A stretch of DNA of 64,000 bases from Amphiscolops sp. MND2022 (GCA_964187785.1 OZ076409.1:8806001-8870000); one strand, 5' to 3'; numbered from the stretch's first letter, positions 30,900 to 50,816 are shown. Numbers and translations are program-made. The notes: a model not told the origin generated them from the letters alone.

Positions 30900-31028
30900 A
30901 TGTAGACGAATGCGGAGAAAAAGTGGATATTTGTGGCACCACTGGGCAATGTGTGAACAACGTGGGATCTTACACATGTCGATGCTACTTGGGCTATGTT
31001 CATAAAACTTCATCCGTCTCCTGTGCAA
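30900..31028 (+). CDS. Host gene exon: calcium-binding EGF repeat
   Basis: TTTTTAG acceptor, DVDECGEKVDICGTTGQCVNNVGSYTCRCYLGY..C, A|GTTGGT donor, 129 bp, phase 1-1. Confidence 0.9.
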
Positions 31029-31691
31029 GTTGGTATCATTCCCAGAAAGACGAACGAAGTTTTTAAGGGAAGTATCAGACATGTATGAATTTTTCATCTT
31101 TCGTGGCCCCATTCTTTTAGAAGAACTTGAAAACTGCATAGTACCCGAAAAGGCGCCGACTTAGAGAAGCAGAACTGAAATGGGGAAATTAACTTTCTTC
31201 TTTCTTCTTCCTATCTTGGAAAATTTTGCAAAACAAAAAACGTCTCAAAAACTTGGATAACAAGATGACCACTGTATACTGGAAAGTTTTCCACCCCGAA
31301 TAACTTTAGCGAAATCACTTTTATTGACCATACATAATTGCTCGAAAAAGGTGGAAATCAACTTTTTTAAATCACTTTTTTCCACTTTTTGATTGATTAA
31401 ATGCACTTTTTCATTTTTGTTTTCTTGCAAAAATGACGAAACTCAGTTTTAGGGCAGTTAAAAATTCGAATAGCTTCTGCGTCGAAATATTAGTGGGTGC
31501 TGCCAACTAGAACCTACTTTCCACATGACCTAGTGGCAAGCGCGCGTGTCTGTGCGGAGTGATTGGCGCTAGAAACCAGCTGTTCGTTGGTTCAAATCCT
31601 ATTATGTGCCATTTTTTAGTCGGCTCGTTTCTTAAGAATAGAGTCAACTATAGTCATGGTTTTTCGTCAGTTTTTTTCGATACACCTGAAG

Positions 31692-33195
31692 TGTTGGACG
31701 ACCGTACAGTAAACGGAGATGTTGCGGTAGAGGCGTCTAATTGTCTGTTTCGTTTTTCATTTTGAGCAATTAATCTCTCCATCATAGTCTTCAATGTAGC
31801 CATCTCACTTAGGAGGTGATTAAACCTCCCTTTATTAGCTTGTTGGAGATCAGACTCATTAGTTGGTGAATTTTGTCCCGATAGCACTTGTTCATCTGAC
31901 GAATTATTGTCATTTTGCATGTTTGAAATCTGAATACTAGGAGATTCAGCTGGTACGTTCGACGCGGTAGACGTTATTATTTTTCCACTTCTGAGTGTTC
32001 TAGGAGAACTGTTATTCATGCTAATTAGCACTTGGTCACGTAACCAGTCATTATGTATGTCGCAAGAGGGCTACTAGCTAAAGATTGCGCGCCAATTCAA
32101 TTTCAAACCAATTACCATGAATATATGATGTATTTCATCTGGTAAAATGTAGCAATCATCTTCTGAGTCATGATCAGACCTGCAAATACATCAAATGAAT
32201 TATAAAATGATCAGGAATTCAATTAGACCAAGTTTTAAAAGAAGGCGATAGGGAAATGATGATTCTATTGCACTAGAATGACTAAACTGTGGAATTCAAC
32301 AAGTTTTGTCGTTTAGATATCGTTTTCTCTAGTTAGTTATGTTAGTGTGGCGGTAGATGTAGAAACGATAATTGAAGTTCGTTCTAGGTGTATGCGTGAA
32401 CAACTAGATGTGAAAACGATAGATCAGCTAAACAGGGAAGGTAAATTTAGTAAATGGGAGAAGTTACATCCCTTTACCATCGTCAACTAATTCTGCACTC
32501 GCGATATGTAAACGATGAGAGATTTTCATCGTTCTTCCATCGTCTGCATGTACGTGTTGAATTACCAAATCGTCGGCAATGTACAAACGATGAAACAATT
32601 TCATCGGTCTTACATCGTTAGTAAATCAGCATCAAAGCAAAGAAATAAGGGGATTCATCAGTTTTACATTGTTACTTTAAATTCTCATTTCTCTTAGCTG
32701 TATGTGGTCGAACGATGTAATATAGATGAAACCTGTTAAACTTGGAGTAAAACTGAGGTTTCAGCATGAATTTCATCGTTTCAGCATCTTCAATCTGTTA
32801 TTCAGTGAAATGAGGCTTGTCGCGTTAGTTTACTTTGAGGCAGGAGCTTCCTAACGAGTGTCAGTCTCATTATTTCCATATGACGTTACAGTTTGACCAA
32901 AAGACTACTTTCTCCTTTTGCGACAAGCCATCAATGAAGAATAGCACCTTTGCTGATTAGCATGACCATAAACTGCGGACATTGGAACTAGAGAACTAGA
33001 GAGCTCAGCAAAGAATTAAATAAACTACTCAATTCTCATGGGGGGAATGAGGGGATTAGGTACAAATAACGTAGGGTTGTTCACAACCATAGCTCTTATT
33101 CTATGACATCATATTGCCCTTATCTAAGTACATAAGACATATTATTTACATTATAGATAACTAGCAGATCATATTTCCATCATGCTGGCATGACA
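31692..33195 (-). repeat. 3' LTR (1504 bp)
   Basis: TGTTGGACGACCG...GGCATGACA, colinear with 49514-50703 apart from two indel or non-homologous blocks. Confidence 0.9.
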
Positions 33196-34312
33196 CTCCC
33201 AGGGAGATTAGGAAGGGGAGCGCAGAGGCCAAATGTGGAGAGGATGGTTGTCGCAGCGTGGGCTTTTACATGGTCCTTCGTTGGTCTTGGGGGAAATGGC
33301 CTTCGTTGGTTCTCGTTAGTTTGGTTCCTTCGTTGGTTCTGTCCCATGGTTATATTTCCTGAGAAGGAGACATCGGTCATCGTTTGAATATCGGCATGAA
33401 CTCGGTTATTTCGGTTAAAGTTGGACGCGTCAGTTCTAGTTCTTGGCCTGTCGAATGTCCGCAGATCGGCTTTTGTGGCTGTCAGGAGTGATTGTAGTAA
33501 GCCGTTGATTTCTGGTGTTAGGCGTAATAATTGGCGTCATTTTGTCTTATAAATTGGAGAGGATGAGTAGCACGTGAGTGGAGAGCGATGAACTGTCGGT
33601 GAATTGCCAATTGCCAAATGAGCTGTGAGCAAACTTGTGGTAATATACCGTATGCGTTGTTGCAGTAGGCATTCCAACTGTGTGCGAGGAGGAAACTTCA
33701 GTTGTCTTGATTAGTCATTGTGTAAATAAAGTAGCCACAATTTCGAGTGCGTCTTTCCGCTGATCGTGTAAACCATTCAAATTGTCAACGACGCTGGCAG
33801 CTTCATCTGAATGTTTTCCTACTACCGGGGTATCAAGGTCCCAACACTTTGATATGATTTTCACAGGAAATTTGAGTCATGTTGTCCGTTTAAACTGTTG
33901 TTTCCTCTGCTAGTTGGTGGAAGGAGATAGTGAAATTGAACCCATATTGAAAATTTTCCATCAGATATTCTTCTTTTGAGGTTTGTAATGTTAAATGTAG
34001 TCGAAACGTTGGTTGTCCTTTTGTTTTTTCTAGAGATTGAATCGATTCCATATCACGGTTGATCAGGCCGCAATACTTTTCGATTATCGTTGTTTTGATA
34101 TCTTCAAATTGAGTTCACATTTACTATCCAGCTTCATTCAAGTATTGTTTTTCAGATTGCAATCGTTGTATCGTTTCTTCATCGTCAAGATGTCAGATGA
34201 TAGTCAGTTGAATCCCTTTACTGTAGCGAATCAATTTAGTTAGTCACCTTTCCTTCATCGTCACAGCTGCTATGGATTTGGGCAATTAAAATGTATTCTG
34301 CTTTGTGTTTAG

Positions 34313-37300
34313 CTGCTGGGGAACGCATGACACCGCCTGGGTCTGGGAGCCCAAGGGTGTACACTCAATTGACTGGGGTGGGGCCTATGTCGCCCATGCA
34401 AACTCCATCGATGCATCACCCACTAATGCCCGTTTATCCGCAGTGTGAGTCTTCTGTTCCACCGAGAAATGTTTCAGTTTGTCATCTGTAGCATCCAGTC
34501 ATCGTCATGAGCTCTCGTTGTTGTTTCAGTCTACTCTCCATGACAACAAACCCTTGGATCTCTGTCCTTGGGATGGTACGACGGTTATCTTTGGAATGCA
34601 GTGCGAGAGGAGCTTGCTGTTGCCAGTAAGTACCACTTTGTTTAGACGTAGGATTGGTAGGGCATCTGAATCAGTGAGTTGTGCTAGCTTCATCGAAGTT
34701 TCATCTGTTTTCCATCGTAGTAGGGACAGCGATGTAGAAACGATGAATACTGTTATTTTAGCTCCTCGAGGAGGTTAGGGAGTGGAGAGGCCGGTCGTGC
34801 GGACCATGGCGTCAATGGCGTGTGGTCCTGAGGCGGAAGAGGCTCGGCGGACTGCTTCCACGCAAACACGACGCGAGTTTGCGATTAGATCGTCGTCAAT
34901 GAGTAGTGGTGAGCCAGAAGTTGCTGTCGATGAGGAGTCCATGGAAGCATGTGGATCAAGCACAGAAGCTGTTGTGGGCGTTTGTGGTTGTCCTGAGGTT
35001 GCTGTCAGTGTCGTCGTACCAAATGTGTCTGGCATTGATGGTCCAATCGTCAGTGGCACTGCCCTTCCCACGAGACGTCCAGTTCGGTCAGGTAACTGAA
35101 CAGCTTCAATGATTTACTTAGACTATATTTTTGGGATTGTAACTAGTCTTTTGTACGTTTTCGGGTTTTGATTTGAATTTTTCTTCTTCAAGCATGTTTT
35201 TGTGTTGTTTTGGGCTATATTATCAGTGTTTTCAGTGAAAATATCGTTTTTTCATCGTGGTAATTTTCCTTTAGTTGATGTAGTTAAAACATCTTTTTCT
35301 TATCGGTGTAGTTAATAAGGATGTCGTTACTGTCGTTCTACGTTCTGTAGAGTGTTTTCATCGTTTGATCATCAGATTTTCTTTTCAGTCGCTAAGAACA
35401 GTATCCGGTCGAGCTGGTTCAAGCACGAGTATGCGGGAATGTCCCTGGGCTTCGCACGAGATCACAGGTCGTCTGAGGCTTTTGTGCGTTGTCGTTTCTG
35501 CAAGTGCGACTTGAAGGTCGGGTGCCGTGGCATCTCGACATACTTAGAGCACTGTCGTGGAGTCATACACCACAAGCTAGACTGTTTGGTGCGTTTCCGG
35601 CGCGGTTTGGTATTGCGTCGACGGACAGGAGCGTTGATGAGTGCTTCGGAAGCGGCTGCGATGGAGCAAGAGCTGAGATTCTTGTCGTTGCCGGAAGTGG
35701 AGGTGCGTCCGCCCTTCTCTGTTAGAGAAATGTTTGCAGTCGAAGCGAGAGACGACAGTATCTAGGATTCAGGTGTGCCTGAAGTGCCTGCCAACGAGCG
35801 GAGCTAGCAGTTCTTTTTGTGATTTGTTCTGGACGCGTTGTACCGGGGTGGAGACGTCACGAGCCTCACTCAACTCTGGGATTCGGTTACGACTACTGAT
35901 GTGTCGTATCAGAGCTTGCTGGGCGTTAGTTGTCGGAAAGAAGATGTTGTCGTAAAGATATTTTACATGTGTTGCATCAGTTACATGTTTTTTCTTTGCA
36001 TGTATGTGTATGTACTTTGTTCGTTTGTTACTAATGTTACTTTTGGGTACAGCATGTCATTCGCGCTTTAGAAAATTATAGGGAGTATGATTTTCTTTGT
36101 TTGATTTAGGCAGTTTTGGTGTTCGGGATTTGGCTGCATGTGGTGCGCTTGATTTCAGGAGACTTGTGTGCAGGGAATCGCGTCGATCACTATGTGGAAC
36201 TTGACCGGGAGGTGTTGCGCTGTTCTGTCACAGTGGCGGAATCGGACATGTTGAGAGGGTACTTCCTGTCGAAGTAGGAGCTATTGGACAGTGGGAACAG
36301 AGAGTGGCTGACTGGATCGCTAATTACTGGTGTGTCATGTTAGAGGAACTTGCGCCTGTGGGAATCAGTTGTTCTGGGATGCCTTCATTACACAGATTGT
36401 TGGAGGGGGCAGATGGCCGTGGAAGTGTGTCGTTGGATCCAGTGCGTCTCGAGTCAGTCATGCAGGTGATCACTGCCGCGGGGTTATCTGTGTTTACTGG
36501 GCAAGAAGTTCATGTCGTCATGATTTTCTTGTTGTCAAAACTACGCGATTGCCTGACAGATCCCGTCCTGATGGCTTGTTCTGCATTAGTGCGTGTAAGT
36601 GTGATTTGATTTTTGGCTTTAAAACAGACTTTCTTTTGATTCAGGTAGGGGGAGGTTTGTTCGTCGCTGAGAGTAGCCTGATCTGAGTTCACTCTGTTTA
36701 GTTTGGTTGATTGTTTTAGTGTATAGTAGCTGGAGAAATCTCGAATTGGCAGATTGTTGCGGTATTAGAGGAGTTACGAGGGTCGTGGGAGAGTCTGGTT
36801 GTTCTTGTGGAACGTCTGGACCAGTTAAGCGGGAGTGTGGATCCTATGCGGATGGAACTGATGGTACTACAAGAGGCTGGTCTGTCCCTCAATTTTCATG
36901 CGATGGGATTGGTGTACACGCAGGGTTGTTATGAATGTTTTATTGTGTCTTCAGTTTCGTCAGTAGGACTATATATGTGCGTTTTTGAATTTGGGTATGC
37001 ATCCTTTATGCATTGTCTGGTTGGAAATCTTTGAGGAGGATGGAATCAATTCATAGGTTTCATCGGTTAGACATCGTTGCTTTGTAGACTACTTTGCTTA
37101 TCGTTTCTGTGTCTGTTTTAGTGTTGGAAGGACTGCAGCAAACCTTCAGTGATCGATTGTATCGTGGCATTTACGGCGTGAGTGAGATATTGAAGGTGGT
37201 ACGACGTCTCCGTCTCATGGTGGCTGGAGACAGTACGGTTCCTGAATCGCGCGAGATATATCGTTGGACCAGCTTTGAACTTGATAGAATACGACTGAGT

Positions 37301-38058
37301 GCAGGAAAAGAATCTCTGATATTCCAAACTTTTGCGTCACATCGATCAAGATATGCGTGTGGAGGCGAGTTTCAACTTGCTGTTATTGTGGTGGAAGAAT
37401 TTGTCATCACGGTTGCTGTGAATCTCTTGCATTTGCCTCAAGTGTCAGATCAGACCAACATGGCTTTGACTTGCTGGGGCCGGATGTGTTGATGCAAGCA
37501 CGAGTTAGTGAAATGGAAGAGATCATGGGCTGTCATTTGGAGACGCTGGAGCGAAGAGGACGACTTGCTGCGACAGACAGAACACCTGTCCTTGAATCCT
37601 TTGTGCGGTTCGTTGGTCAATTCAAAGAAGATCATGGAGAAAACTATGATTTACGGACTCATGAGGGCGAGCTGTAGCAGTATGGATCAAAGGACGTTGT
37701 TTTGCAGATACCCTTTTGTGTGAGTGGAAGTTCCAATCGGAGCTACAATTTTGTGGATTTTAGTCTACCACAGTTGTCGTCAGAGAATATGTCTAGTAGG
37801 ATTGGAACCATTTTGAGTTGGTGTCAGTCCCGAGGTGTGAGGAGTTTGCACAGTATTCCAGACGGTCTGGTCGCAGAGAGTTTTGATGCAGGGGGACGTG
37901 CTATAGAGCTTGGAGTATTGAGTACCGATGATTTTAATGACGAAGTCGGAAGGTCATCGACGGATGATTACAGGGAGTCAGTTTATGAGCGGATGGGGTT
38001 GGCTTTTGACGGAAGTAGAGTAGCAAGTCCAGAAATCGTAGGTGAACGCAGATTTTGA
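34313..38058 (+). pseudogene. Antisense, at least 7-exon accessory gene of the LTR element; about 940 codons with a BED-like Zn finger, decayed
   Basis: Exons 34313-34444, 34530-34625, 34762-35091, 35389-35951, 36110-36594, 36645-36924 and 37122-38058. GT-AG introns with matching phases 1,1,1,0,0,1. Motif CRFCKCDLKVGCRGISTYLEHCRGVIHH. Scattered stops and frameshifts. Confidence 0.75.
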
Positions 38059-38820
38059 AAATTGTGATTTTAATTTTACTAGACTATGCATTTGATTGAT
38101 TATTTACAGTTTTATCTTGATTAGTAAGTGCAGAGCACTTACATTGTATCGGACTTTGTCCATTTGTTTTCTGTAGATAGAGGGAGTACGAATTGAATTG
38201 TGTTCCTCGATGTCATTTATTTTTGGCATATTGTGGTGCCTTTTATTTTGCATGTGGAAGGAGTAGGTGTTGAGTGTAGGGGTTGCGTGGTAGGAATTTT
38301 TCGTCCTGTAGCAAGTTTCATCTTTTTGTGTAAGTAGGTAGGTGTGTGTATTAGAGAAGAGGGAGAAAAAAATGTTTGTTCGTTCATTGGACAAGGTTTT
38401 GTTGTCACGAAATCTCTACAAATCTAACTTAGAAACCATTGTGTCATCGGATTACCCGGGAAGCATACCTTCATCTGATTATGAACCCCCAACTGAACAG
38501 ACACTACGATGAGAAATGTCTACCAGCATGATGGAATATGAATGCTGGTTGAAAACGTACGGGTTATAGTTGTGTTTGGTTGACATGAAAGGGACAGTTG
38601 TTCAGGTCTAAGAATTACTTGGGTTACTGTTGGCGTTCCACTTGTTGTGTTTAAGCATTCTTTTCGGAAAATTCTATAATACTTGTTTGAAAGATTACAT
38701 GATTACATATGTAGGTGTTTTTGCTGAATAGAATAATTTATCACATTCGTTCCTATTGAATTGCATGTTTAATTTAATTTTCTATTTATTGGAGTTGTAA
38801 TTCGCATGTATGAGCTTTTA

Positions 38821-39867
38821 TTTTGTGTAAGCGGTGGAAGATTTCCATCGTACTAACATCGTAATGAAGGTTTGTGTCAACGTAGCGTTGGTGTAGTCGG
38901 CGATGATCGAAACGGCGGAATGATTCCATCGATTTAACATCGCTGTAAGGAGATCGCGTGTAGGTGTTGTTGACTTTTGTGACGATAAGAGAGCTATGGA
39001 ACATTTCCATCGTTTTGTCATCGTTAAATTTTCTTGTGTGAGTGCTGGGTTGGAAATATGGAACGATGATTAAACGATGAAACATTTTCATCGTCTTTTC
39101 ATCAGTGTGTTGCAATTACATGTGTTTTACCTTTATTTTCCGTGTATTGGGTGATTTCGTGCTGTTTTGAAGCGATGAGTAAGCGATGGGAGAATTCCAT
39201 CCCTTATACATCGTTAATGTGAGTTTGTTTGTCTATTCTCGGATTTACGCGACGATGAGAGAACAGTGAAATTTTTCCATCGTTTTTCATCGTTGACTGT
39301 TGTTTGGATTACTGTTGAGCTGGCGAAAAAGCTATGAGCGAATGATGAAAACTTGATTTCTATCGCTTGTTTATCGATGTGTTTTTATGCGTTATTGGAT
39401 TTTGAATTGCGGTTGTTTCATCTTTTCGATATCCTCAATCAGGAAGGTGTATAACATTTGTGACAAGGTAAGGCGGAGCCTATAGTTATTGACGATTGAA
39501 GAAGAAGTCTCTCTGAAATGAATTGTAGAGAGAAGGAAGATATAGAAGTGATGGAGAATGTCCATCTCTTTTACATCGTGTTACTGAATTGTGTCAATCG
39601 AGTACGATGGTTTGTCTATTTTCCATCGTTTAGTCGGTAATTGTGTGTTTCGTCAAATGAAGGTTGTTAACCAGATGTTAACAAGAAGCGAAGCCTACCA
39701 ATTATCAACAACCAGGTCAAGGAACTTCTGTATGATTTTGTGGCATGGTCGGAGAGAAGATGAGGATGTGAAAACGATGGATGTGAACCATCGTTTAAAC
39801 ATCTTGATTTCCAGGTAATTTGCTAGAGATGGGTTTTCGATGGAAATGTTCCATCGGATTTACATCG
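38821..39867. repeat. Interspaced array of 41-bp double palindromes CGATG-N6-CGATG-N9-CATCG-N6-CATCG
   Basis: Units start at about 38821, 38901, 38983, 39064, 39173, 39253, 39332, 39538, 39764 and 39827. Mostly about 80-bp period with unrelated spacers. Same unit in both LTRs. Confidence 0.85.
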
Positions 39868-42800
39868 TTTCTGGTGATTTTAATTTTTCTTCACGAAGGG
39901 GCGTTGTTCAGCCATCGTTTTGTGAAAATGTTGTTTACATGTTTTTCGTTTTTTACTGCCGAGCAGTGTTTGTTATGCGTAAGGCGTTTCTAGCGTTTGA
40001 GATTTTTTGAATTAGGGAATCTGAGTAGCGTTTCGGCTGAGGGTTTTCGTGTAGTTTATATTTACTTCTATTTGTTCTCGTTGTTGTCAGATTTGTCGTT
40101 TCTTCGTCATTCACCTGTCGAGGTGTCTCAGTGTTAGTAGGTATGGCTGGTGGTTCTTAGCGGTTCGATGTGTCTTCCGTGATATTTTGCCAAATTATCT
40201 CATCGTTTTTGCTGAATTGCACCTGCGGGGCGTTTTGTGGCAGTTCGCCCATGATAATTTCCAATTGTGGTGTGAGTGACAGTCTATTCGGTAATCGACT
40301 TAGTGGTCTGTCGTGTCGGATTGCTTGTCGGTGATCTTGGGATTTTAATCGAATGACTCTTTCAACTGGTGTTTCATCTTCAGTTTCTGGTTCATCCGGT
40401 TCAAGGTGTATTTTTGTTTGTGTCGGAATGTGGGAGTCAAATATATGTGGGAGTCGGAATCTTTCGTGCGGTCCATGTCAGCGTATATTGGTTGGTTACC
40501 GATGTCTACGTCTTTTACAGGGAACTCCGGTTTGAAGATTTTCAGCCCTATGCGGTGAACGCATTGTGTTTTGAACGTTCCTACATTCCGTATGATGTAG
40601 TTACTGTCGGACAGCACTTTCATTACTTTGAACGGACCTTTCCAGTGGAAGGTCTTAAACTCTTCTTTACAACCCTGTGAGTCGTATATGGGGTCAATTA
40701 GGAAAACAAGGTCGTTCACTTTGAGTGGTCGTGCTTTGGCTTTTCTGTCATAATATGCTTTGTACTTGTGGTACGCAGCTATGTTGTCCGTGTTATCTCG
40801 GTAGATTTCGTTCGTTCGGTCTAGAATTTTGTTGACGTCTCCAAACTTCGTGTCGACTCGTCTTTAAGGGTTAGAGTATTTTAGGTCCAAAGCGTTGTAT
40901 GGAGTGCGTCCGTGAGAGATTTCGGTTGGTGAACACTTCAGAGAAGTGTGGTACGTTGTATAGTGGGCCATAATTGCTATGTCGACATAGCGGTCCCAGT
41001 GTGGTCTGTCTACATTTACATGTATTTTGAAAATCTTTTTAAGTTTTGCATGACTTCTCTCGACCATGCCTTTAGTTCGTGCATGTTTTATCGTTGCATG
41101 GGAGATTTCAAGGCCAATGGCTTTAGTAAGTTGTTGGAACAGTTCAGCGGTGAACACGGATCCTTTGTCGGTCAGGATATGCGTTGGGACGTACGCGTGT
41201 TTGGCAAATACCGACAAAATAGCGGTAACGAGATGTATTGTGTCAGGTTTACGCAGTGGTACAGCAAGCAAATAACTCGAGAATACGTCGATTGCGGTCA
41301 GGATATGTGTGAGTCCGTTGCATGCAGGCAGTGGTCCGACTATGTCTACTTCTATCAGATCAGTAGGACCGTTACACGGGTCGTATATTTTCTGCAACGA
41401 TGGGCGGAGTTTTGATTCGTTTGTAGATTTTGATCGCATACAAATTTCGCAACTTTCGAGTATTTTTTGCGTTTTTTCAGCAAGGCTTGGAGAGTAGTAG
41501 CGTTTACGTAGTTCGTGTAACATCTTTTTAGAACACGAGTGTCCCTGTACAGGGTCAATGTGTAAAGACCTGATTATTTCTGACATCAATTGATCAGTTA
41601 TGGCGATTTGCTTATGGAACTCAAGGCCTGTCCTGTATGATCATAAACGATACGGTACAGAACTCCGTTTACATTTTCAAGGCGTTTTCGATTTTTGTGA
41701 AGTTTTTGGAAAAACGTTGACATCAAGTTTACAGGGTGGGTCAAGGTAGTTTCGCCGGACAAAATTTTTAACTTGAGTTGAATATCACTATTTGTTTTTT
41801 GAGTTAAGATTAGATCGACTCCCCCTGAGAGGCTAACCTCCTTCGTCACTGGGGCTAGTAACGATGTTTGGACGGTGAATTTTTTGTACACTGGTGTTTG
41901 GGCATCAGTCAATAGTCGGTAAATCTGTATGCAGCTGGTGTGATCATCCTCAGAGGCATGTGGTGCTGGTTCTACCCAATTCATCGTGTTGTCATCGTCA
42001 TTGGTTTTCGCCGTCACGTCGAGTGGTTTCATCGGTTTGTCATTTTCGTGTGCCATTGTCTCAGAGTTGGCTGTTTTCATCGGTGTTGCATCGTGGGACT
42101 TCTTCTGTCTCAGTGGTTCGCTCGGAGGGAGTAGTCTATTTCGTCTTCCTCCTGTTTTGGCGTCTTCGAGGCGGTGTCGATTTCTATGTGGTGTACTGGA
42201 ATGGAATCAGTTACTTTTAGATGAACACGTTCTTTAGGTCGAATTTCCAACCTGGAGAGGTAATCAGCTGCAGGATTCTCTCTACCTGGTACTACACAAA
42301 TGGCAAAATAAAATTAAACTGAAGTGTTTGGTCACAAAAGTTTCAAAGCGACGGTGGAATGTGTTTGGTCTGAAAGAAACATGTGAGTGCCTTATTATCT
42401 GTCATTACAATTAGAGGCTTTTTTGCACCCCAGAGGATGTGACCAACCTCGTCAAAAACAAAATGCATAGCCATGAAATCCTTAGCATACATTGTCAATG
42501 ACATCAGTCCACCCTGGAATTTCTTAGAGCCAAAAGCAACTGGGGCATATTTCTTTGAGCTACCCGATTGTGGTTCAGAGTAGTCTTCTATCAGAAGAAC
42601 ATAGCGCGCTGCATGTTCACTCTCGTCACACATAATTACCGATTGCTTGTCCGGAAGGGGAAGTTTCAATGCCTGTTTAGTACCCTGGAGTAAACTTTCG
42701 TTAATTTCAAAACTTACATCTGTGTGGCGTTGTTCTAATTGACGATTGAAGAAGAAGTCTCTCTGAAATGAATTGTAGAGAGAAGGAAGATGTAGAAGTG

Positions 42801-45800
42801 ATGGAGAATGTCCATCTCTTTTACATCGTGTTACTGAATTGTGTCAATCGAGTACGATGGTTTGTCTATTTTCCATCGTTTAGTCGGTAATTGTGTGTTT
42901 CGTCAAATGAAGGTTGTTAACCAGATGTTAACAAGAAGCGAAGCCTACCAATTATCAACAACCAGGTCAAGGAACTTCTGTATGATTTTGTGGCATGGTC
43001 GGAGAGAAGATGAGGATGTGAAAACGATGGATGTGAACCATCGTTTAAACATCTTGATTTTCAGGTAATTTGCTAGAGATGGGTTTTCGATGGAAATGTT
43101 CCATCGGATTTACATCATTTCTGGTGATTTTAATTTTTCTTCACGAAGGGGCGTTGTTTAGCCATCGTTTTGTGAAATTGTTGTTTACATGTTTTTCGTT
43201 TTTTACTGCCGAGCAGTGTTTGTTATGCGTAAGGCGTTTCTAGCGTTTGAGATTTTTTGAATTAGGAAATCTGAGTAGCGTTTCGGCTGAGGGTTTTCGT
43301 GTAGTTTATATTTGCTTCTATTTGTTCTCGTTGTTGTCAGATTTGTCGTTTCTTCGTCATTCACCTGTCGAGGTGTCTCAGTGTTAGTAGGTATGGCTGG
43401 TGGTTCTTAGCGGTTCGATGTGTCTTCCGTGATATTTTGCCAAATTATCTCATCGTTTTTGCTGAATTGCACCTGCGGGGCGTTTTGTGGCAGTTCGCCC
43501 ATGATAATTTCCAGTTGTGGTGTGAGTGACAGTCTATTCGGTAATCGATTTAGTGGTCTGTCGTGTCGGATTGCTTGTCGGTGATCTTGAGATTTTAATC
43601 GATTGACTCTTTCAACTGGTGTTTCATCTTCAGTTTCTGGTTCATCCGGTTCAAGGTGTATTTTTGTTTGTGTCGGAATGTGGGAGTCAAATATATGTGG
43701 GAGTCGGAATCTTTCGTGCGGTCCATGTCAGCGTATATTGGTTGGTTACCGATGTCTACGTCTTTTACAGGGAACTCCGGTTTGAAGATTTTCAGCCCTA
43801 TGCGGTGAACGCATTGTGTTTTGAACGTTCCTACATTCCGTATGATGTAGTTACTGTCGGACAGCACTTTCATTACTTTGAACGGACCTTTCCAGTGGAA
43901 GGTCTTAAACTCTTCTTTACAACCCTGTGAGTCGTATATGGGGTCAATTAGGAAAACAAGGTCGTTCACTTTGAGTGGTCGTGCTTTGGCTTTTCTGTCA
44001 TAAGATGCTTTGTACTTGCGGTACGCAGCTATGTTGTCCGTGTTATCTCGGTAGATTTCGTTCGTTCGATCTAGAATTTTGTTGACGTCTCCAAACTTCG
44101 TGTCGACTCGTCTTTAAGGGTTAGAGTATTTTAGGTCCAAAGCGTTGTATGGAGTGCGTCCGTGAGAGATTTCGGTTGGTGAACACTTCAGAGAAGTGTG
44201 GTACGTTGTATAGTGGGCCATAATTGCTATGTCGACATAGCGGTCCCAGTGTGGTCTGTCTACATTTACATGTATTTTAAAAATCTTTTTAAGTTTTGCA
44301 TGACTTCTCTCGACCATGCCTTTAGTTCGTGCATGTTTTATCGTTGCATGGGAGATTTCAATGCCAATGGCTTTAGTAAGTTGTTGGAACAGTTCAGCGG
44401 TGAACACGGATCCTTTGTCGGTCAGGATATGCGTTGGGACGTACGCGTGTTTGGCAAAAACCGACAAAATAGCGGTAACGAGATGTATTGTGTCAGGTTT
44501 ACGCAGTGGTACAGCAAGCAAATAACTCGAGAATACGTCGATTGCGGTCAGGATATGTGTGAGTCCGTTGGATGCAGGCAGTGGTCCGACTATGTCTACT
44601 TCTATCAGATCAGTAGAACCGTTACACGGGTCGTATATTTTCTGCAACGGTGGGCGGAGTTTTGATTCGTTTGTAGATTTTGATCGCATACAAATTTCGC
44701 AACTTTCGAGTATTTTTTGCGTTTTTTCAGCAAGGCTTGGAGAGTAGTAGCGTTTACGTAGTTCGTGTAACATCTTTTTAGAACACGAGTGTCCCTGTAC
44801 AGGGTCAATGTGTAAAGACCTGATTATTTCTGACATCAATTGATCAGTTATGGCGATTTGCTTATGGAACTCAAGGCCTGTCCTGTATGATCATAAACGA
44901 TACGGTACAGAACTCCGTTTACATTTTCAAGGCGTTTTCGATTTTTGTGAAGTTTTTGGAAAAACGTTGACATCAAGTTTACAGGGTGGGTCAAGGTAGT
45001 TTCGCCGGACAATTTTTTTAACTTGAGTTGAATATCACTATTTGTTTTTTGAGTTAAGATTAGATCGACTCCCCCTGAGAGGCTAACCTCCTTCGTCACT
45101 GGGGCTAGTAACGATGTTTTGACGGTGAATTTTTTGTACACTGGTGTTTGGGCATCAGTCAATAGTCGGTAAATCTGTATGCAGCTGGTGTGATCATCCT
45201 CAGAGGCATGTGGTGCTGGTTCTACCCAATTCATCGTGTTGTCATCGTCATTGGTTTTCGCCGTCACGTCGAGTGGTTTCATCGGTTTGTCATTTTCGTG
45301 TGCCATTGTCTCAGAGTTGGCTGTTTTCATCGGTGTTGCATCGTGGGACTTCTTCTGTCTCAGTGGTTCGCTCGGAGGGAAGTAGTCTATTTCTTCTTCC
45401 TCCTGTTTTGGCGTCTTCGAGGCGGTGTCGATTTCTATGTGGTGTACTGGAATGGAATCAGTTACTTTTAGATGAACACGTTCTTTAGGTCGAATTTCCA
45501 ACCTGGAGAGGTAATCAGCTGCAGGATTCTCTCTACCTGGTACTACACAAGTGCCAAAATAAAATTAAACTGAAGTGTTTGGTCACAAAAGTTTCAAAGC
45601 GACGGTGGAATGTGTTTGGCCTGAAAGAAACATGTGAGTGCCTTATTATCTGTCATTACAATTAGAGGCTTTTTTGCACCCCAGAGGATGTGACCAACCT
45701 CGTCAAAAGCAAAATGAATAGCCATGAAATCCTTAGCATACATTGTCAATGACATCAGTCCACCCTGGAATTTCTTAGAGCCAAAAGCAACTGGGGCATA

Positions 45801-45990
45801 TTTCTTTGAGCTACCCGATTGTGGTTCAGAGTAGTCTTCTATCACAAGAACATAGCGCGCTGCATGTTCACTCTCGTCACACATAATTACCGATTGCTTG
45901 TCCGGAAGGGGAAGTTTCAATGCCTGTTTAGTACCCTGGAGTAAACTTTCGTTAATTTCAAAACTTACATCTTTGTGGCGTTGTTCTAAT
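39490..45990. repeat. Head-to-tail 3.25-kb internal duplication (39490-42739 / 42740-45990) covering RNase H, integrase and 3' UTR
   Basis: Near-identical ORF sets offset by 3250-3251 bp. Junction ..GTTCTAAT|TGACGATTG with 2-bp AT microhomology. Confidence 0.95.
40864..41589 (-). pseudogene. pol: Gypsy integrase fragment (duplicated copy)
   Basis: HHCC (LHIDPVQGH..CEIC) and D-D-E core (VDIVGP, LTDKGSVF, GMVERSH). Confidence 0.9.
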
Positions 45991-47989
45991 GTAAAGGTAG
46001 TGTCTTTTTGTTTAATTCGTGGAGAACAGCTGTTTTGTCTGCCAGTCGGGGAATGTACGACCTGTAAAATTTAACAAATCCTAAGTACCGCTGAAGAGCT
46101 TTAACTGAATTGGGGAGTTTGAGTTTGTTTCAAAACATCCGTTACACGTTTTTCTATAAGTGCGATACCAGTGCTAGAAATGGTTTTACCAAGGTAATCA
46201 ATTTGTTGTTGGTCATATTCACATTTACTCATGCTGAGTTTCAGACCAGCTTTGGACAATTGCTGAAAAACAAGTTCTAAAATTTCAAACATTTCATCGG
46301 GTGTACTCGCTGCTATGCCGATATCATCAGTATACTGGGCACAGGGGTCCGCTTTGACCAAGGGGTCCAAATACTCGCGGACCACGCTGGTGAAGGCTAA
46401 AAGAGAACCGTTAAGACCTTGGGCTAGTCTGAGGAAAGCAAAGGTCCGAGATTCAAAGTTAAAGGACAAAAGTTGGATTGACTACTCATCGGCCATTGGA
46501 ATGCATTGGTAGGCCTGGGAACAATCAAGTTTACGGAAATATTTTTTCCGGCCATGTGTTGAGCAGCGTCTGAAACAGTTGTTACTGGGTGTTTATGTTC
46601 ACCATAGTCGTTCTTGATGAGGTGGTTGATTCTCCGCCAGTCAACTAAATTCCTTAGTTTCCCGTTTGGTTTACGTTGTGCAAAAATCGGTGACGAGTAT
46701 TTGCTGTAAGAAAGAGTAGATTTAATCCCGTACTCCTGCATTTACGCTAATTCTACAAGTAGGTCATCTTTTAGGTTAGTGGGTGTAGGGAGACTTTGAG
46801 AGTACACTGGTTCATTATGCTGAGGTGTTAATTATACTTTGAAATCGGTGTTCATGCCGATGTCAAAACGATGTCTAGCAAAAATGGAATTGTTCTCTAC
46901 CAGCAACTCCTCTACCTGAGCTTGTTGAGACGGAGAAAGAAGCGATTCGTCCCACGTGAAAGTTTGCAGGAACTTGATTCGTTTGTCATGAGAGCGGACA
47001 GGATCGAGCTTCTCCAGTTCTCTGAGAGCCACAATCTCATCGAAAATTCGTCTTTCAATGTTGTTGACTTTGTCTGGCTCACTACACGTCTCTGGCGTCT
47101 GGTTCCATTTTGTAGACTTCAATTCCGGATTCACAAAGCGCTGATTGATTACGCGGCTGCTCCATCTTCGAAGTGATCGGTGATCAACTTCAGGTGTTCA
47201 ACTGACATCGGTGTGATGTTGGCTACTTGGTGGGGGGGTTGGAATTCTGAAGTTCGCCAGGTTGGTGTTTGCCTCGAGCGTGAACACTTGCTCATTGGGG
47301 TTGGTGACCTGAATCATTGTTTTTCCATCGTCTAGGTCAACTACTGCTGGAGACACCAAGAGACACGTCTTGCACATGAAGGCTGGAGTCCCTTCGACCG
47401 TGCCAGTTGTATGTGATTTGTTACTGTGGACCTCAATCAGTACTTGATGGTGGGGAGGGATGGTCGTTCTGCAGCTGGAATACAAATCATGTAGCCCAGT
47501 TTTGAACTTTCTTTTCGTTTGTTGGCTCACTTGTATTGACATCATATGGTTAGGAAAATGGACTAAGTGATTTTTTATATCAAGGTTGACTGAATACTTT
47601 TCAAAAAAGGACAATCCAATCAGGATCGTTTTCATTGTTGGGACGACTAAAAAGACATCTTCAAAGACTTTTCCTGCTATGAAAAAGCGTGAGAGGAATT
47701 GTTTTCGAATGGGGACTAAATTGCCGTTGGCAATCTGAACTATATAGTTGGGGGGCGGGAGTTCATTTAATACTGCCTCCGGATGGGCAGCCGTATATTT
47801 GCGTAATTCGGCTTCTGAGAGTGCGCTTTGCACTGCTCCGGTGTCTAAAAGACCTTGGTTTTCGTATGTGTTAAACTGAAGGAGAACAAACAACATCTTA
47901 TTCTTTTTATTGAAATGTAAAGTGGGACTAAGTACGTAAACTTGACAAATGTTTTTTAGTTTTGGAACTACTACTCGTGTGTTTTGCAT
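43260..47989 (-). pseudogene. pol: Gypsy pol (PR-RT-RNase H-IN), broken by stops and frameshifts
   Basis: LLDTGA protease, AQYTDDIGI RT, IMCDESEHAA..YAKDF..VMTDNKAL RNase H, integrase 44114-44839, C-terminal WKGPFKV (GPY/F). Confidence 0.93.
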
Positions 47990-48331
47990 GTGTGTGTTTT
48001 ACTACTAAGCCGTTTTGTCGTATAGTTATCTCTTTGGAGTCGGTCCGTTGGTTGTAGATGTGGAGCCTCAATGCGTCGTCATGACAGTTCATCGGTTGTT
48101 CATCGATTGAGTTTTCCAATGGAGTGAATCGGTTACTGGTCTCCATCGACTTCATCGGTTGTTCGTCGGGTTTCTGATTCTTTCGCAGATAGACTTCGTG
48201 TGCTTTGCAGGGATCACCAGAGGGCTGCCAAGACCTCTGATGACGGTTGTGAAGGGTTGGTCGAGTCGAGTGAGTTTTTGAGTCAGAGAGTAGGTGCGCA
48301 CTTTATTTGTTCGCGGAGTGAAATTGTGGCT

Positions 48332-49843
48332 TTACTGAAAATTCTGTTCCTCTTCTGAGAACGAATCGTCGTTGTCGTTTTGTATTTCCAATTGGTTCAT
48401 GCGACGTTGTTGTTGTTTTAGTTCGCGTCGTCGCCCTTTGATTTTTTGGTCATCGGTCCGTTTGTATGGTAATTGTCCGTATGGTGTGCTCCTTTGCTTT
48501 GGAATTCGCTTTCTGCAATCCCTAGCTGAGTGGCCACTGTATCTACAAATCTGACAGACCAGTTTCGGGTTGAATTTTGGCTTGTCGTCGTCTTGTCGCT
48601 GGGTTGGTTGTATGGCATCTGGTTTGGTTACGCCATTAGCCTCGTCTCGTTGTCTCGTTGTCGTCCTCGGCATTCTTGTTTCCTGTGTCCTTGTTTACCA
48701 CAGTAGAAACATTTGCCTTCAAAACGTTTAGTCTCTGATTTGGGTTGATTGGTGTGACAATACGACTTGGTCAGATTGTGTGCATTCTCGCTTTGTAGTA
48801 TTATCAGACATCTGGCTAGTTGGCTGGTTGATGTGGTTTGTTGGAGTTTGTTCCGGTACTGGTATTTCCGGAGCAGGTATGTTTTGATTTATTCAGTGCT
48901 GCTGTCTTCTTTGAAGCCATCGTCAGTTCTTGTTGGATGTTCGCTGGTAGTTTTCCGAATAAGAACATCCTGATGCACTTGTCTGCATCGTCGCCATAAG
49001 CTTGTTTGGCAATCTTCTTGATGTCTTTTAGAAAATCTCCAATTGTCTGAGTGGTCGGATCGTATTTGGCTTCATTCCATTTATATCGGGCGACCTCTCG
49101 CATGTCTTCCTTTGCAAACTCTTTTCTGAATAATTGGAGGACATCTTGCAGTGTGGTGGTAGAGTTGATTGTAATTGTTTGCCAAAAGTCGATGTCTTCG
49201 TCACAGAGTAGGCTTGGAAAAAAGTGGATTTTATCGTCTTGCGTGATTTTATTGGCGATTGGTCGCCAGTGGATAAGTAACAGATGCTCGATTTCATTGT
49301 ACTTGTTTTTAGATCCGCGGAAATTTGGTACATGCGTCTGAAATAGTTTCGTGTTGGTTTTTTGTAATTACCTGGGTAGGTCTTGGATGGCGTTGAGCAG
49401 TGCAGACTCGGTTGTATTGCTAGGTATGTATCCGTAGTCTTCTTCGTCTTCTTCGTCTTCATCCTGGAAGTGGTTGCGTTGGTTTCTGTGAGTCATGGTG
49501 ACTCCTGTCACCATGCTGGACGACCGTACACCAAACGATGATGTTGCAGTAGAGGCCTTTTAATTGTCTGTTTCTTTCTTCATTTTGGGCAATTTTTCTC
49601 TCTATCATAGTCTTCAATGTAGCCATCTCACTTTGGAGGTAATTAAACCTCTCTTCAATAGCTTGTTGGAGATCAGACTCATTAGTTGGTGAATTTCGTC
49701 CCATTTGCACTTGTTCATCTGAAAAAATATTGTTATTTTCCCTTGTTTGAAATCTGAGTATTAGGAGATTCAGCTGGTACGTTCGACGAGGTAGACGTTA
49801 ATATTTTTCCACTTCTGAGTGTTCTAGGAGAACTGTTATTCAT
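48332..49843 (-). pseudogene. gag: Gypsy gag, starting inside the 5' LTR, with two CCHC knuckles
   Basis: CFYCGKQGHRKQEC and CQICRYSGHSARDC. The N-terminal MNNSSPRTLRSGK.. reading starts in the LTR (seen intact in the 3' LTR ORF 31654-32031). Confidence 0.85.
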
Positions 49844-50703
49844 GTGATGTTAACGAGATGAATTTGTGGATAAGAGCTGTATTGTTAGGATTGTATGAAA
49901 ATCAGGTACTAAGATGCAGTTTTACAGTTGATTAGCAGGTTTTAAAAGAAGGCGATATGGAAATGATGATTCTATTGCACTAGAATGACTAAACTGTGGA
50001 ATTCAAGTTTTGTCGTTTAGATATCGTTTTCACTAGTTAGTTACGTTAGTGTGGCGGTAGATGTAGAAACGATGAATGAAGTTCGTTCTATGTGTATGCG
50101 TGAACAACTAGATGTGAAAACGATAGATCAGCTATACAGGGAAGGTCAATTTGGTAAATGGGAGAGGTTACATCGGTTCATCATCGTCAACTAATTCTGC
50201 ACTCGCGATGTGTAAACGATGAGAGATTTTCATTGTTCTTCCATCGTCTGCATGTACGTGGTAAATTACCAAATCGTCGACGATGTACAAACGATGAAAC
50301 ATTTTCATCGGTCTTACATCGTTAGTGAATCAGCACCAAAGCAAAGAAATAAGGGGATTCATCAGTTTTACATTGTTACTTTAAATTCTCAATTCTCTTG
50401 GTTGTATGTGGTCAAACGATGTAATATAGATGAAACCTGTTAAACTTGGAGTAAAACTGAGGTTTTAGCATGAATTTCATCGTTTTAGCATCTTCAATCT
50501 GTTATTGAGTGAAATGATGCTTGTCGAGTTAGTTTACTCTGAAGCAGGAGCTTCCTAACGTTTGTCAGTCTCATTATTTCCATGTGACGGTCCAGTTTGA
50601 TATTTTTTATATGACATCATTTTGCACATATCTAAGTACATAAGACATATTGTTTACAATATAGGTATTTATTAGATTATATTTCCATCATTGTGGCATG
50701 ACA
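49514..50703 (-). repeat. 5' LTR (1190 bp), followed by PBS at 49501-49513
   Basis: Homologous to 31692-33195. On the minus strand reads ..CCAGCA|TGGTGACAGGAGT. Confidence 0.9.
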
Positions 50704-50816
50704 TGAAGTGACCAAAAAATTTATACCAAAAGTTCTACAAAACTTGAAGGAATGCGTTGAATTGTTCCTGTTGACCCAGAAAAAAAACCAAAAAGGTTTT
50801 TCTTTTTTTGTGTATC

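Follow-up and report, generated by a model that had tools for sequence, protein, structure and literature searches.

An eight-exon gene antisense to gag-pol, probably a genuine accessory gene of a Ty3/gypsy retrotransposon lineage

The window, by which the whole analysed stretch of 64,000 nucleotides from Amphiscolops sp. MND2022 is meant, contains on its minus strand a complete but decayed Ty3/gypsy retrotransposon that extends from 31692 to 50703. The pol domains identified with Pfam follow each other in the Ty3/gypsy order PR-RT-RNase H-INT between 47998 and 43595 of the minus strand, and as in Metaviridae there are two LTRs with TG...CA ends and a short target-site duplication (TSD). Apart from the antisense gene, the element and its borders comprise:

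31687..31691, no strand: left copy of the TSD, TGAAG, with the identical five bases at 50704-50708
31692..33195, minus strand: 3' LTR, TG...CA, termini aligned with three other copies
33196..34189, plus strand: region from the 3' LTR to the first coding exon, expected site of promoter and 5' UTR of the antisense gene, from an alignment of 5 copies
38059..40156, no strand: spacer from the 3' end of the antisense gene to the 3' end of pol, with a cluster of TTYCATCG and palindromes at 38843-39856
40157..49797, minus strand: decayed gag-PR-RT-RNase H-INT (Pfam)
49500..49513, minus strand: TGGTGACAGGAGTC, primer-binding-site-like, directly after the 5' LTR and kept at the same place in 4 copies
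49514..50703, minus strand: 5' LTR, matched to the 3' LTR
50704..50708, no strand: right copy of the TSD, TGAAG, the same five bases as on the left

In gag-pol, the Pfam models gag-asp_proteas, RVT_1, RT_RNaseH, Integrase_H2C2, rve and Integrase_p58_C are matched, and there is an internal tandem duplication of 3.25 kb (39488-42739 equals 42738-45990 at 99.0%). The 3' LTR aligns with 49514-50703 at 89.4%, 93.3% and 85.0% identity over 331, 675 and 100 bp, respectively, and an empty-site paralogue of both element flanks is found at window 1474-1644. The window copy is old and dead. Three other copies have 5-bp TSDs of their own (GCACG, GTCAT, TTCAT) and LTR pairs that are 95-98% identical, and the copy L044 has an open RT-RH-INT frame of 787 aa. 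TGGTGACAGGAGTC may serve as the primer-binding site. In the region next to the 3' LTR, the 5-copy alignment contains conserved blocks at 33196-33330 and at about 33650-33800, and a conserved acceptor-like TTTTCAG that ends at 34156. None of 443 pol matches had a name informative of the clade of the element, and Rfam and tRNA scans of the window gave no match. The host genome is large and probably that of an invertebrate; an animal host is suggested by two further features of the window, a BEL/Pao gag domain and an EGF_CA exon.

Between pol and the 3' LTR lies a gene on the opposite strand, which the first-pass annotation had already described as an intron-split plus-strand gene antisense to gag-pol of a retrotransposon. 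This description holds, with the gene at about 34.2-38.06 kb and the element on the minus strand; of the span of 34313..38058 that had been given, the end is correct, whereas the start lies further upstream. As deduced from the aligned copies, the gene is split by seven GT-AG introns into eight coding exons, which comprise 941 codons in unbroken relatives (periodicity is the max/min ratio of the 3-base period of nucleotide diversity):

34190..34238, plus strand: exon 0, coding part, ATG plus 16 codons plus 1 nt, absent from the earlier model
34239..34312, plus strand: intron 0, 74 bp, phase 1, from the copy alignment and L043
34313..34444, plus strand: exon 1, Pro/Gly/Thr/Ser-rich, periodicity 3.65, dN/dS 0.13
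34445..34529, plus strand: intron 1, 85 bp, phase 1, GT in 19/21 and AG in 20/21 copies
34530..34625, plus strand: exon 2, periodicity 4.23, stop at 34541-34543 in the window copy
34626..34761, plus strand: intron 2, 136 bp, phase 1, GT in 20/21 and AG in 21/22 copies
34762..35091, plus strand: exon 3, Ser/Gly/Val-rich, variable, periodicity 1.66, dN/dS 0.34, stop at 34776-34778 in the window copy
35092..35388, plus strand: intron 3, 297 bp, phase 1, GT in 20/22 and AG in 21/22 copies, 22.9 indels per 100 bp
35389..35951, plus strand: exon 4, finger, basic stretch and conserved block, periodicity 3.53, dN/dS 0.13
35952..36109, plus strand: intron 4, 158 bp, phase 0, GT in 20/24 and AG in 24/24 copies
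36110..36594, plus strand: exon 5, periodicity 2.58, dN/dS 0.19, frameshift near 36268-36271 in the window copy
36595..36719, plus strand: intron 5, 125 bp, phase 0, donor GTAAGT in 25/25 and acceptor AG at 36719 in 25/25 copies
36720..36924, plus strand: exon 6, periodicity 3.03, dN/dS 0.18
36925..37121, plus strand: intron 6, 197 bp, phase 1, weak donor GTTGTT, GT in 24/25 and AG in 22/24 copies
37122..38058, plus strand: exon 7, about 312 codons, C-terminal, periodicity 2.58, dN/dS 0.17, stop TGA at 38056-38058

Six introns had been proposed originally, five of which (85, 136, 297, 158 and 197 bp) are exact. The sixth, of 50 bp, had its acceptor at 36644, where AG occurs in 1 of 25 copies, that one being the window copy, and as the donor at 36595 and the acceptor at 36719 are present in all 25, it has to be replaced by an intron 5 of 125 bp. 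The donor at 36925 had rightly been called weak; most copies (20/25) have GTTATT at this place. The newly added exon 0 has its ATG at 34190 in 13 of the 13 rows covering that site and a donor GT(T/G)AGT at 34239 in 13 of 14 rows, it is in frame with exon 1, and it is open in the sister copy L043. Subfamilies are separated by a 6-nt (3n) indel in exon 0 and by a 21-nt in-frame indel in exon 1.

That the window copy itself carries stops and frameshifts had also been recognised: in-frame stops are at 34541, 34776, 35763, 35805, 35820 (the last three in exon 4) and 37675 (37675-37677), and frameshifts are near 36270 in exon 5 and 37478 in exon 7. In L043, joining the eight exons gives an uninterrupted frame of 941 codons that opens with ATG and closes with TGA; the introns measure 75, 71, 137, 355, 116, 130 and 190 bp, in the phases 1,1,1,1,0,0,1, and the minus strand of that copy has no ORF of more than 112 aa. 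Stop-free rows, counted by hand, amount to 72 of the 130 scored rows of the window type (29 of 44 if full-length rows are considered) and to 108 of the 127 scored rows of the P0014 type. Two intron-less relatives, P0017 and P0038, span the junction of exons 6 and 7 at exactly the spliced spacing (15 vs 15 and 9 vs 9 codons). A further candidate for an intron-less exon 6-7 copy in the host genome (L045) was rejected, as it is only an open read-through of the intron without exon 6.

Splice sites, periodicity, indels and dN/dS were assessed in up to 25 aligned copies (21-25 at donor and acceptor sites). A 3-base period of nucleotide diversity is found in all seven exons tested, with max/min ratios of 1.66-4.23 and with the wobble offset that is predicted by the intron phases, whereas introns have no such period (1.08-1.36). 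Indels are three- to six-fold less frequent in exons than in introns (3.4-8.3 vs 9.6-28.8 per 100 bp). The comparison of dN/dS among copies, which the first-pass annotation had recommended, indicates strong purifying selection with values of 0.13-0.34, namely 0.13-0.19 for exons 1 and 4-7 and 0.34 for exon 3, exon 2 having no usable pairs; wrong frames gave 1.06-1.76 and introns read as codons 0.59-1.29, and all these figures are descriptive, because copy pairs are not independent.

It could be asked whether the antisense unit matters mainly as RNA, by way of dsRNA, small RNAs or transcriptional interference, so that the reading frame would be incidental. Gene and pol are indeed convergent, and dsRNA-mediated regulation has been raised for antisense units in the accessible text of a review of such cases (PMC7264820), but a role as RNA only would leave unexplained the codon periodicity, the dN/dS of 0.13-0.19, the intact frames of 941 codons, the conserved splice phases and the conservation of the protein down to 25% identity. 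Such an explanation is therefore improbable, although a role of the RNA and a role of the protein do not exclude each other.

The gene is not a peculiarity of the window copy. It is collinear in 5/5 other copies, namely in 4/4 that were examined with 30 kb of context and in L044, and in all of these as well as in the window it runs against gag-pol in the interval from pol to the 3' LTR, the arrangement that defines an aORF-3R. In the genome, the gene is carried at 236 scored places, with 1,153-1,796 first-look candidates, and its lineages in this one genome are 25% to 100% identical. Among the scored places, an integrase is found within 8 kb of 82/109 exon-7 places of the window type and of 11/127 of the P0014 type, and by coordinate matching 93/93 of these gene-integrase pairs are convergent on opposite strands, 1.2-6.4 kb apart, including pairs of a lineage that is only about 25% identical in protein. 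Conversely, of the 138 integrase places that were scored, at least 94 have a listed exon-7 place no more than 8 kb away, which is a lower bound because each genome search scored 126-138 of 1,153-13,532 candidates. Gene and pol identity correlate with r = 0.66 over 15 pairs of 6 copies, but as these pairs are not independent, the correlation does not count as evidence here.

These data bear on the origin of the arrangement. Nested insertions are common, and the stretch of 33.2-40.2 kb contains several short inverted repeats, so that an independent DNA transposon or other element might by chance have inserted into one retrotransposon copy. The first-pass annotation had named terminal inverted repeats (TIRs) and a TSD bracketing 34.2-38.8 kb, or a lack of both spliced reads and purifying selection in any copy, as observations that would speak against its reading; no such pair was found, and selection is strong. 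The sole bracketing repeat pair, 34726-34745 and 38927-38946, is 20 nt long with 85% identity, has one arm in intron 2 and the other in the spacer and is based on CGATG, a recurrent motif, and there is no combination of TIRs and TSD around the gene. A chance insertion is refuted by the 5/5 collinear copies, by the TSDs that copies have of their own, and by the 93/93 convergent pairs, and can practically be dismissed.

Also a one-off transduction of a host gene has to be considered, or a host gene in or under dead transposon copies, in both cases with no role for the element. Introns are normal in host genes, and LTR elements can transduce host gene fragments, but according to the accessible part of the same source transduced genes occur in one or few copies (PMC7264820), which contrasts with the 236 scored places found here. 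In addition, place and orientation are constant in lineages that are 25% to 100% identical, selection is visible between element lineages, and a longer or annotated form of the gene was not found, the latter being weak evidence. A host gene without a role for the element is thus very improbable.

It is thus most likely, with a probability of about 0.85 as judged from the sequence comparisons, that the gene is a genuine protein-coding accessory gene of this Ty3/gypsy lineage, situated on the opposite strand in the stretch from pol to the 3' LTR. Replication of the element would be carried, as is established for retroelements, by full-length minus-strand RNA from the 5' LTR, and because the introns are reverse-complemented in this RNA, they would be invisible to the spliceosome, would be reverse-transcribed unspliced, and would be inherited by every new copy. 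It is in line with this logic, which predicts introns in TSD-flanked retrotransposed copies, that every retrotransposed copy examined has kept the introns, three of these copies having TSDs of their own, so that the initial proposal of introns surviving an RNA-mediated cycle is supported. The gene would be transcribed from a promoter of its own on the opposite strand, in the 1-kb stretch by the 3' LTR or inside the LTR, and the plus-strand transcript would be spliced and translated. The same place in lineages down to about 25% protein identity, together with the strong purifying selection, indicates that the gene serves the propagation of the element itself, and the elements may use the product as their own regulator.

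The predicted product begins with a sequence of low complexity, followed by a Cys2His2 finger with a basic stretch behind it, and continues with about 730 more conserved residues, the last of which form an all-alpha domain. The finger, W-F...C-x2-C-x16-H-x5/6-H at 35415-35573 in exon 4, had been seen before as a C-x2-C...H-x5/6-H motif preceded by WF, and it is indeed conserved among copies. Exon 4 also contains the basic stretch R-R-G-x2-L-R-R, and in an alignment of 15 proteins its conservation ends exactly at the splice sites. The remainder had been called helical-looking, which holds for exon 7, whose AlphaFold2 model is all-alpha with 16 helices and a mean pLDDT of 76.7; the finger region is modelled poorly (mean pLDDT 49.6). 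Pfam assigned no family to the plus-strand exon products (best E 0.12, otherwise none or chance matches), and PDB profile searches returned nothing beyond a de novo protein (E 2) for exon 7 and RNF8 (E 0.67) for exon 4. With Foldseek, the exon-7 model had 0 matches at E<=0.001 in the PDB (best 1.4) and 0 in BFVD. Its best ESM Atlas neighbour (0.78) is below the line of reliable recognition, and so is that of exon 4 (0.87), with unnamed clusters first. The 50 relatives that were found among 1.84 billion representatives are all unnamed short ORFs, and longer, fused or annotated forms of the exon-7 protein were not among the findings, which again is weak evidence. The protein family is absent from the named protein sets searched.

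The finger was the reason for assuming a captured hAT transposase gene originally, and in that form the assumption is not supported, as there is no match in Pfam or PDB and the genome places of zf-BED do not include copies of the gene. It is nevertheless possible, though doubtful, that the gene was a BED-finger hAT transposase that was taken over long ago and is now a DNA-binding protein; that the product is still a nuclease is less likely. Such a descent would concern the origin only and is compatible with the function as an accessory gene. The CCHH finger has a BED-like spacing with an aromatic pair before it, and the language-model neighbours of exon 4 include, as leads only, a Spin-doc/GT2D2 zf-C2H2_12 cluster (0.87) and another in which 12% of the members carry zf-BED (0.86). 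However, neither zf-BED (PF02892) nor Dimer_Tnp_hAT nor any other model is matched in Pfam at E<=10 by sets of 10, 8 and 15 proteins, with 0/15 proteins matching PF02892 in exon 4, and the zf-BED model finds 139 other places in the genome at E<=0.01 but none of the seven gene copies compared. PDB profile searches with exons 4 and 7 yielded no homologue, Hermes is not ranked among the 315 Foldseek matches of the exon-7 model, and the Glu of a C-terminal Y-E-R-x-G motif varies among lineages, a residue that may or may not correspond to the catalytic Glu of hAT. Unlike hAT and BED-finger proteins such as Hermes (PDB 8edg), the gene has no Pfam match to a BED, hAT-dimerisation or RNase H-like DDE domain and no TIRs with an 8-bp TSD, which are absent from 33196-40200, and its mobility is that of the LTR retrotransposon which carries it.

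A possible target of the protein is suggested by the DNA of the element. The motif TTYCATCG occurs 38 times in the window, where 5.4 are expected, and 32/38 are inside the element; in four other copies, 25/26, 33/34, 28/30 and 37/42 are inside. Both the LTRs and the spacer between gene and pol contain palindromes of 19 bp, CGATGRAA-N3-TTYCATCG, and the same holds for the four other copies. TTYCATCG may in part be a branch-site-like intron signal, and a link of the protein to the palindromes is purely conjectural; a host factor could bind them instead. In view of the conserved CCHH finger, the basic stretch and this motif, a tentative candidate role would be that of a nuclear DNA-binding factor that regulates transcription of the element, or guides or protects the element, possibly acting through the 19-bp palindromes in the LTRs and the gene-pol spacer.

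Antisense genes at this position are known from plants. The aORF-3R of plant Ty3/gypsy elements include gene23 of maize Grande and those of rice RIRE2, Silene Retand and Phaseolus PvRetro13 (PMC7264820, PMC11963269); the antisense ORF of Grande has its own promoter (PMC7264820), TRP28 is found in 97% of Retand clusters (PMC11963269), and the products are often nuclear or predicted to bind DNA, with their function open (PMC7264820, PMC11963269). The word 'intron' does not occur in the accessible parts of these two papers. To judge from the same parts, the gene resembles the plant aORF-3R in its antisense position between pol and the 3' LTR and its presence in all or most copies of a family, and the elements are alike in having a long region with short repeats between pol and the 3' LTR. 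The present gene differs in having seven spliceosomal introns, 941 residues, no Pfam domain, and a host that is probably an animal. A relation in sequence was assessed solely through Transposase_28 (PF04195), which has no Pfam match at E<=10 on any exon product.

In fungi, the antisense gene brtn was reportedly described by Zhao et al. 2011, Virology 417:248. It belongs to Boty-like Ty3/gypsy elements of Botrytis (mentioned in PMC8365987 and PMC7264820). As far as these mentions go, it is likewise an accessory gene in antisense orientation, with pol on one side and the 3' LTR of the gypsy element on the other, but in a host of another kingdom.

HBZ is a bZIP factor of a vertebrate retrovirus, HTLV-1, and is expressed from a spliced transcript with one intron. 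For HBZ and related deltaretroviral antisense genes, an antisense promoter in the 3' LTR has been described (accessible text of PMC7264820). The likeness consists in a coding gene near the 3' end of a retroelement, on the strand that does not encode gag-pol-env; the own promoter, the spliced mRNA and the function as nuclear regulator are those of HBZ, which by analogy is the best model for how the present gene may work. With one intron and bZIP, HBZ differs from the present gene with its seven introns, in which no exon matches a Pfam bZIP family.

The retention of introns has a counterpart in engineered retrotransposition indicators, namely his3AI in Ty1 and neo cassettes in L1, in which an intron antisense to the retroelement transcript survives the RNA cycle, whereas a sense intron is removed. 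The gene shares with them the antisense-intron principle, but the cassettes are artificial, with the intron in sense to the element, and the gene is a natural mirror image that has been kept for long. In the literature searched, which lay outside most subscription journals, no intron-containing antisense gene was reported in an animal LTR retrotransposon, and the antisense extra genes of plant and fungal families and of HTLV are treated as plain ORFs in the accessible texts. The backward layout of the extra gene is already known from plants, fungi and HTLV; the present case is distinguished by a host that is probably an animal.

The function of genes that LTR retrotransposons carry backwards is still open, and the present case offers a clean model of eight exons and 941 codons under strong purifying selection, many apparently unbroken copies, several deeply diverged lineages in one genome that give comparative power to map conserved protein surfaces, and a candidate DNA motif that can be tested against the protein. 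It is also a natural instance of the principle behind antisense-intron retrotransposition reporters. In genome annotation, such units will be taken for host genes by gene finders and masked by repeat libraries. Copies of the lineage number from hundreds to more than a thousand in this genome, with the protein diverged to about 25% identity, and the most far-reaching reading, which as a whole is rather unlikely, would be that of an old, successful animal Ty3/gypsy lineage with a seven-intron antisense gene derived from a BED-finger hAT transposase, the product of which binds the CGATGRAA-N3-TTYCATCG palindromes as a dimer. If this were true, a retrotransposon would supply a factor with sequence specificity by which its own copies are switched on, targeted or shielded, and the gene would unite a DNA-transposon protein with the life cycle of a retroelement in a natural fusion and be an animal counterpart of HBZ.

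The pol of the window element, which comes from a eukaryotic assembly of 1.07 Gb, can be assigned to Ty3/gypsy by its domain order on the minus strand, where Pfam matches to aspartic protease, RVT_1, RT_RNaseH, Integrase_H2C2, rve and Integrase_p58_C follow each other in ORFs running from 49.8 to 40.1 kb. The element is complete, as it has a pair of LTRs (85-93% identity in a self-comparison of the window) with TG...CA ends, a 5-bp target-site duplication and a PBS-like TGGTGACAGGAGTC immediately inside the right LTR, the ends, duplication and PBS-like site being set by alignment with three other copies, and as there is an empty-site paralogue at 1474-1644, in which the element flanks 50725-50809 and 31613-31693 are joined in reverse orientation (81-83% identity). 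Since the flanks are joined there without the element, the latter has inserted into another repeat. The parts of the element are:

31687-31691 and 50704-50708: target-site duplication TGAAG
31692-50703, minus strand as sense strand: the complete element, 19,012 bp
31692-33195 and 49514-50703, minus strand: the LTR pair
34190-38058, plus strand: the antisense gene with eight exons (E0-E7)
34190 (ATG) to 34239 (donor), plus strand: exon 0, which joins exon 1 in frame; a 6-nt indel separates subfamilies here

The window element is old and decayed, with LTRs that are about 91% alike and a pol that consists of a dozen fragments and contains a 3.25-kb internal tandem duplication (39488-45990; 3,250 bp twice, 99.0% identity). 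Also a copy on chromosome 11 has internal pol duplications (three repeats of 2,579 bp and two of 2,473 bp, 98-99.8% identity), and such duplications seem to be frequent in this family. Beside the 3' LTR (33196-33230), only GGGAG is found on the strand where a polypurine tract is expected, and a long purine run lies instead on the strand of the antisense gene, where it is kept in five copies. In the surroundings, about 15 kb of satellite DNA with a 39-bp unit (~14000-29550), which yields spurious ORFs of great length on either strand, ends about 2 kb from the element, and about 890 bp at 22-911 match their own reverse complement at 98.7% and thus form a long palindrome or an inverted duplication. 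Just beyond the 3' LTR, an ORF that looks like an exon and encodes a calcium-binding EGF domain (30761-31066, plus strand; EGF_CA, E 3.5e-10) is probably part of a host gene. At 58212-58883 on the plus strand, and on to 61 kb, a BEL/Pao gag-type domain (DUF1759, E 6.5e-6), with a 436-aa ORF behind it that has no Pfam match, belongs to a second, different retroelement.

The first-pass annotation had proposed a gene with six GT-AG introns, one of them of 50 bp, at 34313-38058, and the observation of a spliced-type antisense gene in the element is confirmed by the comparison of copies, with two corrections of coordinates. When the model was rebuilt from the sequence and tested against 24 other copies of the same genome (67-88% identical), each proposed intron was a dip in conservation, the proposed splice sites coincided with the limits of ORFs in other copies, and GT or AG was retained in 19-25 of 21-25 copies at every site other than the acceptor 36644. 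This acceptor of the 50-bp intron is an AG in 1 of 25 copies, whereas all 25 have AG at 36719, from where the following exon is open in phase 0, and intron 5 therefore extends from 36595 to 36719. The start of the gene had been placed too far downstream, as an additional coding exon precedes it, whose ATG is present in all 13 rows that cover it. With these corrections, the seven predicted splice junctions are, in window coordinates, 34238/34313, 34444/34530, 34625/34762, 35091/35389, 35951/36110, 36594/36720 and 36924/37122. A conserved TTTTCAG directly before this exon 0 suggests a second, non-coding 5' exon ahead of it. The best-conserved non-coding block between LTR and gene in five copies lies at ~33650-33800. 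It includes TTCAGTT, which resembles an initiator, and AATAA(A/G)GTAGCCACAATTTCGAGTGCGTCTTTCCGC, with hardly any variation among these copies, and is a candidate for the promoter or the first exon of the gene.

Coding is evident from the diversity between copies, which follows a 3-base period in each of the seven exons examined (max/min 1.66-4.23) and shows none in introns and flanks (1.08-1.36), and the wobble offset is as the phases predict, namely 1 after phase-1 introns and 2 after phase-0 introns. The dN/dS ratios (Nei-Gojobori) are 0.13 for E1, 0.34 for E3, 0.13 for E4, 0.19 for E5, 0.18 for E6 and 0.17 for E7, with no usable pairs from E2, as compared to 1.06-1.76 in wrong frames of the same exons and 0.59-1.29 in introns read as codons, and there are 3.4-8.3 indels per 100 bp in exons versus 9.6-28.8 in introns. 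The window copy itself is dead and, as had been recognized from the sequence before, broken: its reading frame is interrupted by stops at 34541, 34776, 35763, 35805, 35820 and 37675 and is shifted near 36270 and 37478. In L043, a copy of a sister subfamily with about 65% identity in exon 7, the splice sites are canonical at 14 of 14 boundaries, and its eight joined exons give 2,826 nt, i.e. 941 codons from ATG to TGA with zero stops. Its introns of 75, 71, 137, 355, 116, 130 and 190 nt have phases 1, 1, 1, 1, 0, 0 and 1 and a GC content of 0.30-0.40, versus 0.47-0.58 in the exons (0.37 in the first), and a search of its opposite strand gave no ORF above 112 aa. P0017 and P0038, two relatives in a protein library, have 26-27% identity in exon 7, with P0017 reaching at best 31% in this genome; both are intron-less at the exon 6-7 junction, and the residues between the aligned blocks match the spliced spacing precisely (15/15 and 9/9 codons).

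The gene could have entered the element as a nested insertion, but this is ruled out by collinear copies, by the outcome of a search for inverted repeats with target-site duplication, none of which bracket the gene, and by convergent gene-integrase pairs genome-wide. Four other copies, viewed in 30 kb of context, share the order LTR, gene, spacer, INT to gag, LTR with the window, and they have LTR pairs of 1.3-1.8 kb that are 95-98% identical and, in three of four cases, their own target-site duplications; in a fifth copy, from a 57%-identity subfamily, the gene faces an open RT-RH-INT frame of 787 aa. Genome-wide, exon-7 and integrase positions were paired at distances of up to 8 kb, using 109 of 130 window-type exon-7 rows (21 short ones excluded), 127 rows of the distant P0014 type and 138 integrase rows; 126-138 of 1,153-13,532 candidates were scored per search, and the counts are thus lower bounds. 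An integrase lies within 8 kb of at least 82 window-type and at least 11 P0014-type places, all 93 pairs among the matches listed being on opposite strands, convergent and 1.2-6.4 kb apart, and at least 94 integrase places among the 138 listed have an exon-7 place nearby. The P0014 type, encoded in the same genome at more than 100 places, shares only about 25% identity with the window type and yet has the same layout, and the arrangement is therefore old. Numerous gene copies look unbroken, with 72 of 130 window-type rows (29 of 44 full-length ones) and 108 of 127 P0014-type rows free of stops by hand count among the matches listed, and the open frames around integrase matches reach 1,729 aa. 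On contig 12, two copies separated by about 50 kb share 94.8% identity in pol and just 74.8% in the antisense gene, a gap that is smaller in other pairs and that may reflect recombination between lineages exchanging the accessory gene.

The protein begins with ~200 faster-evolving residues rich in Pro, Gly, Ser and Thr (exons 0-3), and exon 4 encodes, in this order, W-F, C-x2-C-x16-H-x5/6-H, an invariant R-R-G-x2-L-x-R and a conserved block, with conservation ending precisely at the exon limits in an alignment of 15 proteins. The first-pass interpretation as a whole is supported in part, and its reading of the finger as a sign of capture of a hAT-like transposase is not supported in that form: named language-model neighbours of exon 4 do bear hAT-type fingers, but no exon product has a Pfam match up to E<=10 or a match among PDB sequence profiles, and as the neighbour scores of 0.86-0.87 are under the reliability line of the tool, descent from a hAT transposase is a rather doubtful lead and not a finding. 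A catalytic fold would be expected in exons 5 and 6. The structure model of exon 4 was of too low quality for use. For exon 7, an AlphaFold2 model from 23 aligned sequences is all-alpha with 16 helices (mean pLDDT 76.7; 82-96 over residues 20-205), and Foldseek gave nothing in PDB or BFVD. Among 1.84 billion representatives there are 50 relatives of exon 7, all of them short, and the ten whose records were checked are ENA entries without a name; a search for a longer form gave none.

A possible target of the protein is the motif TTYCATCG, which occurs 38 times in the window versus 5.4 expected (seven-fold), 32 of these within the element, and in four other copies 25/26, 33/34, 28/30 and 37/42 occurrences are within the element. 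Both LTRs and the spacer between gene and pol contain clusters of it (32524-32778, 38843-39856, 50239-50482), with the same pattern in the four other copies, and in part it forms a 19-bp palindrome, CGATGRAA-N3-TTYCATCG, at 32588, 39075, 39838 (=43088) and 50292. Binding by a host factor instead of the antisense-gene protein would be equally possible. Single copies are also found 25-55 nt ahead of several intron acceptors (34710, 35356, 37058), and some of these intronic copies may be branch-site-like.

With position, orientation, introns, selection and inheritance via retrotransposition established at the level of genomic sequence, a mode of action can be proposed. The spliceosome recognises an intron solely in the orientation of the transcript to which it belongs, so that the introns of the antisense gene would stay unspliced in the genomic RNA of the element and would be copied into each new insertion; antisense-intron indicator cassettes rest on the same principle. 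The gene would be transcribed from its own promoter beside or within the 3' LTR, its mRNA would be spliced, and the product may be a nuclear DNA-binding protein that aids the element.

In its mode of expression, the gene would resemble the antisense genes of HTLV, of which HBZ is transcribed from the 3' LTR. A search of the literature, with thin coverage of subscription journals, gave no comparable case in animals. The layout is the same as that of the aORF-3R, an antisense additional ORF between pol and 3' LTR, of the plant gypsy elements Grande, RIRE2, Retand and PvRetro13, and as that of brtn of Botrytis Boty (PMC7264820 and PMC11963269 for the plants; Boty as cited in PMC8365987). New are the probable animal host, to which an EGF_CA exon and a BEL/Pao gag domain in the window point, the gene structure with seven introns, an orphan protein of large size, and how deep and numerous the family is.
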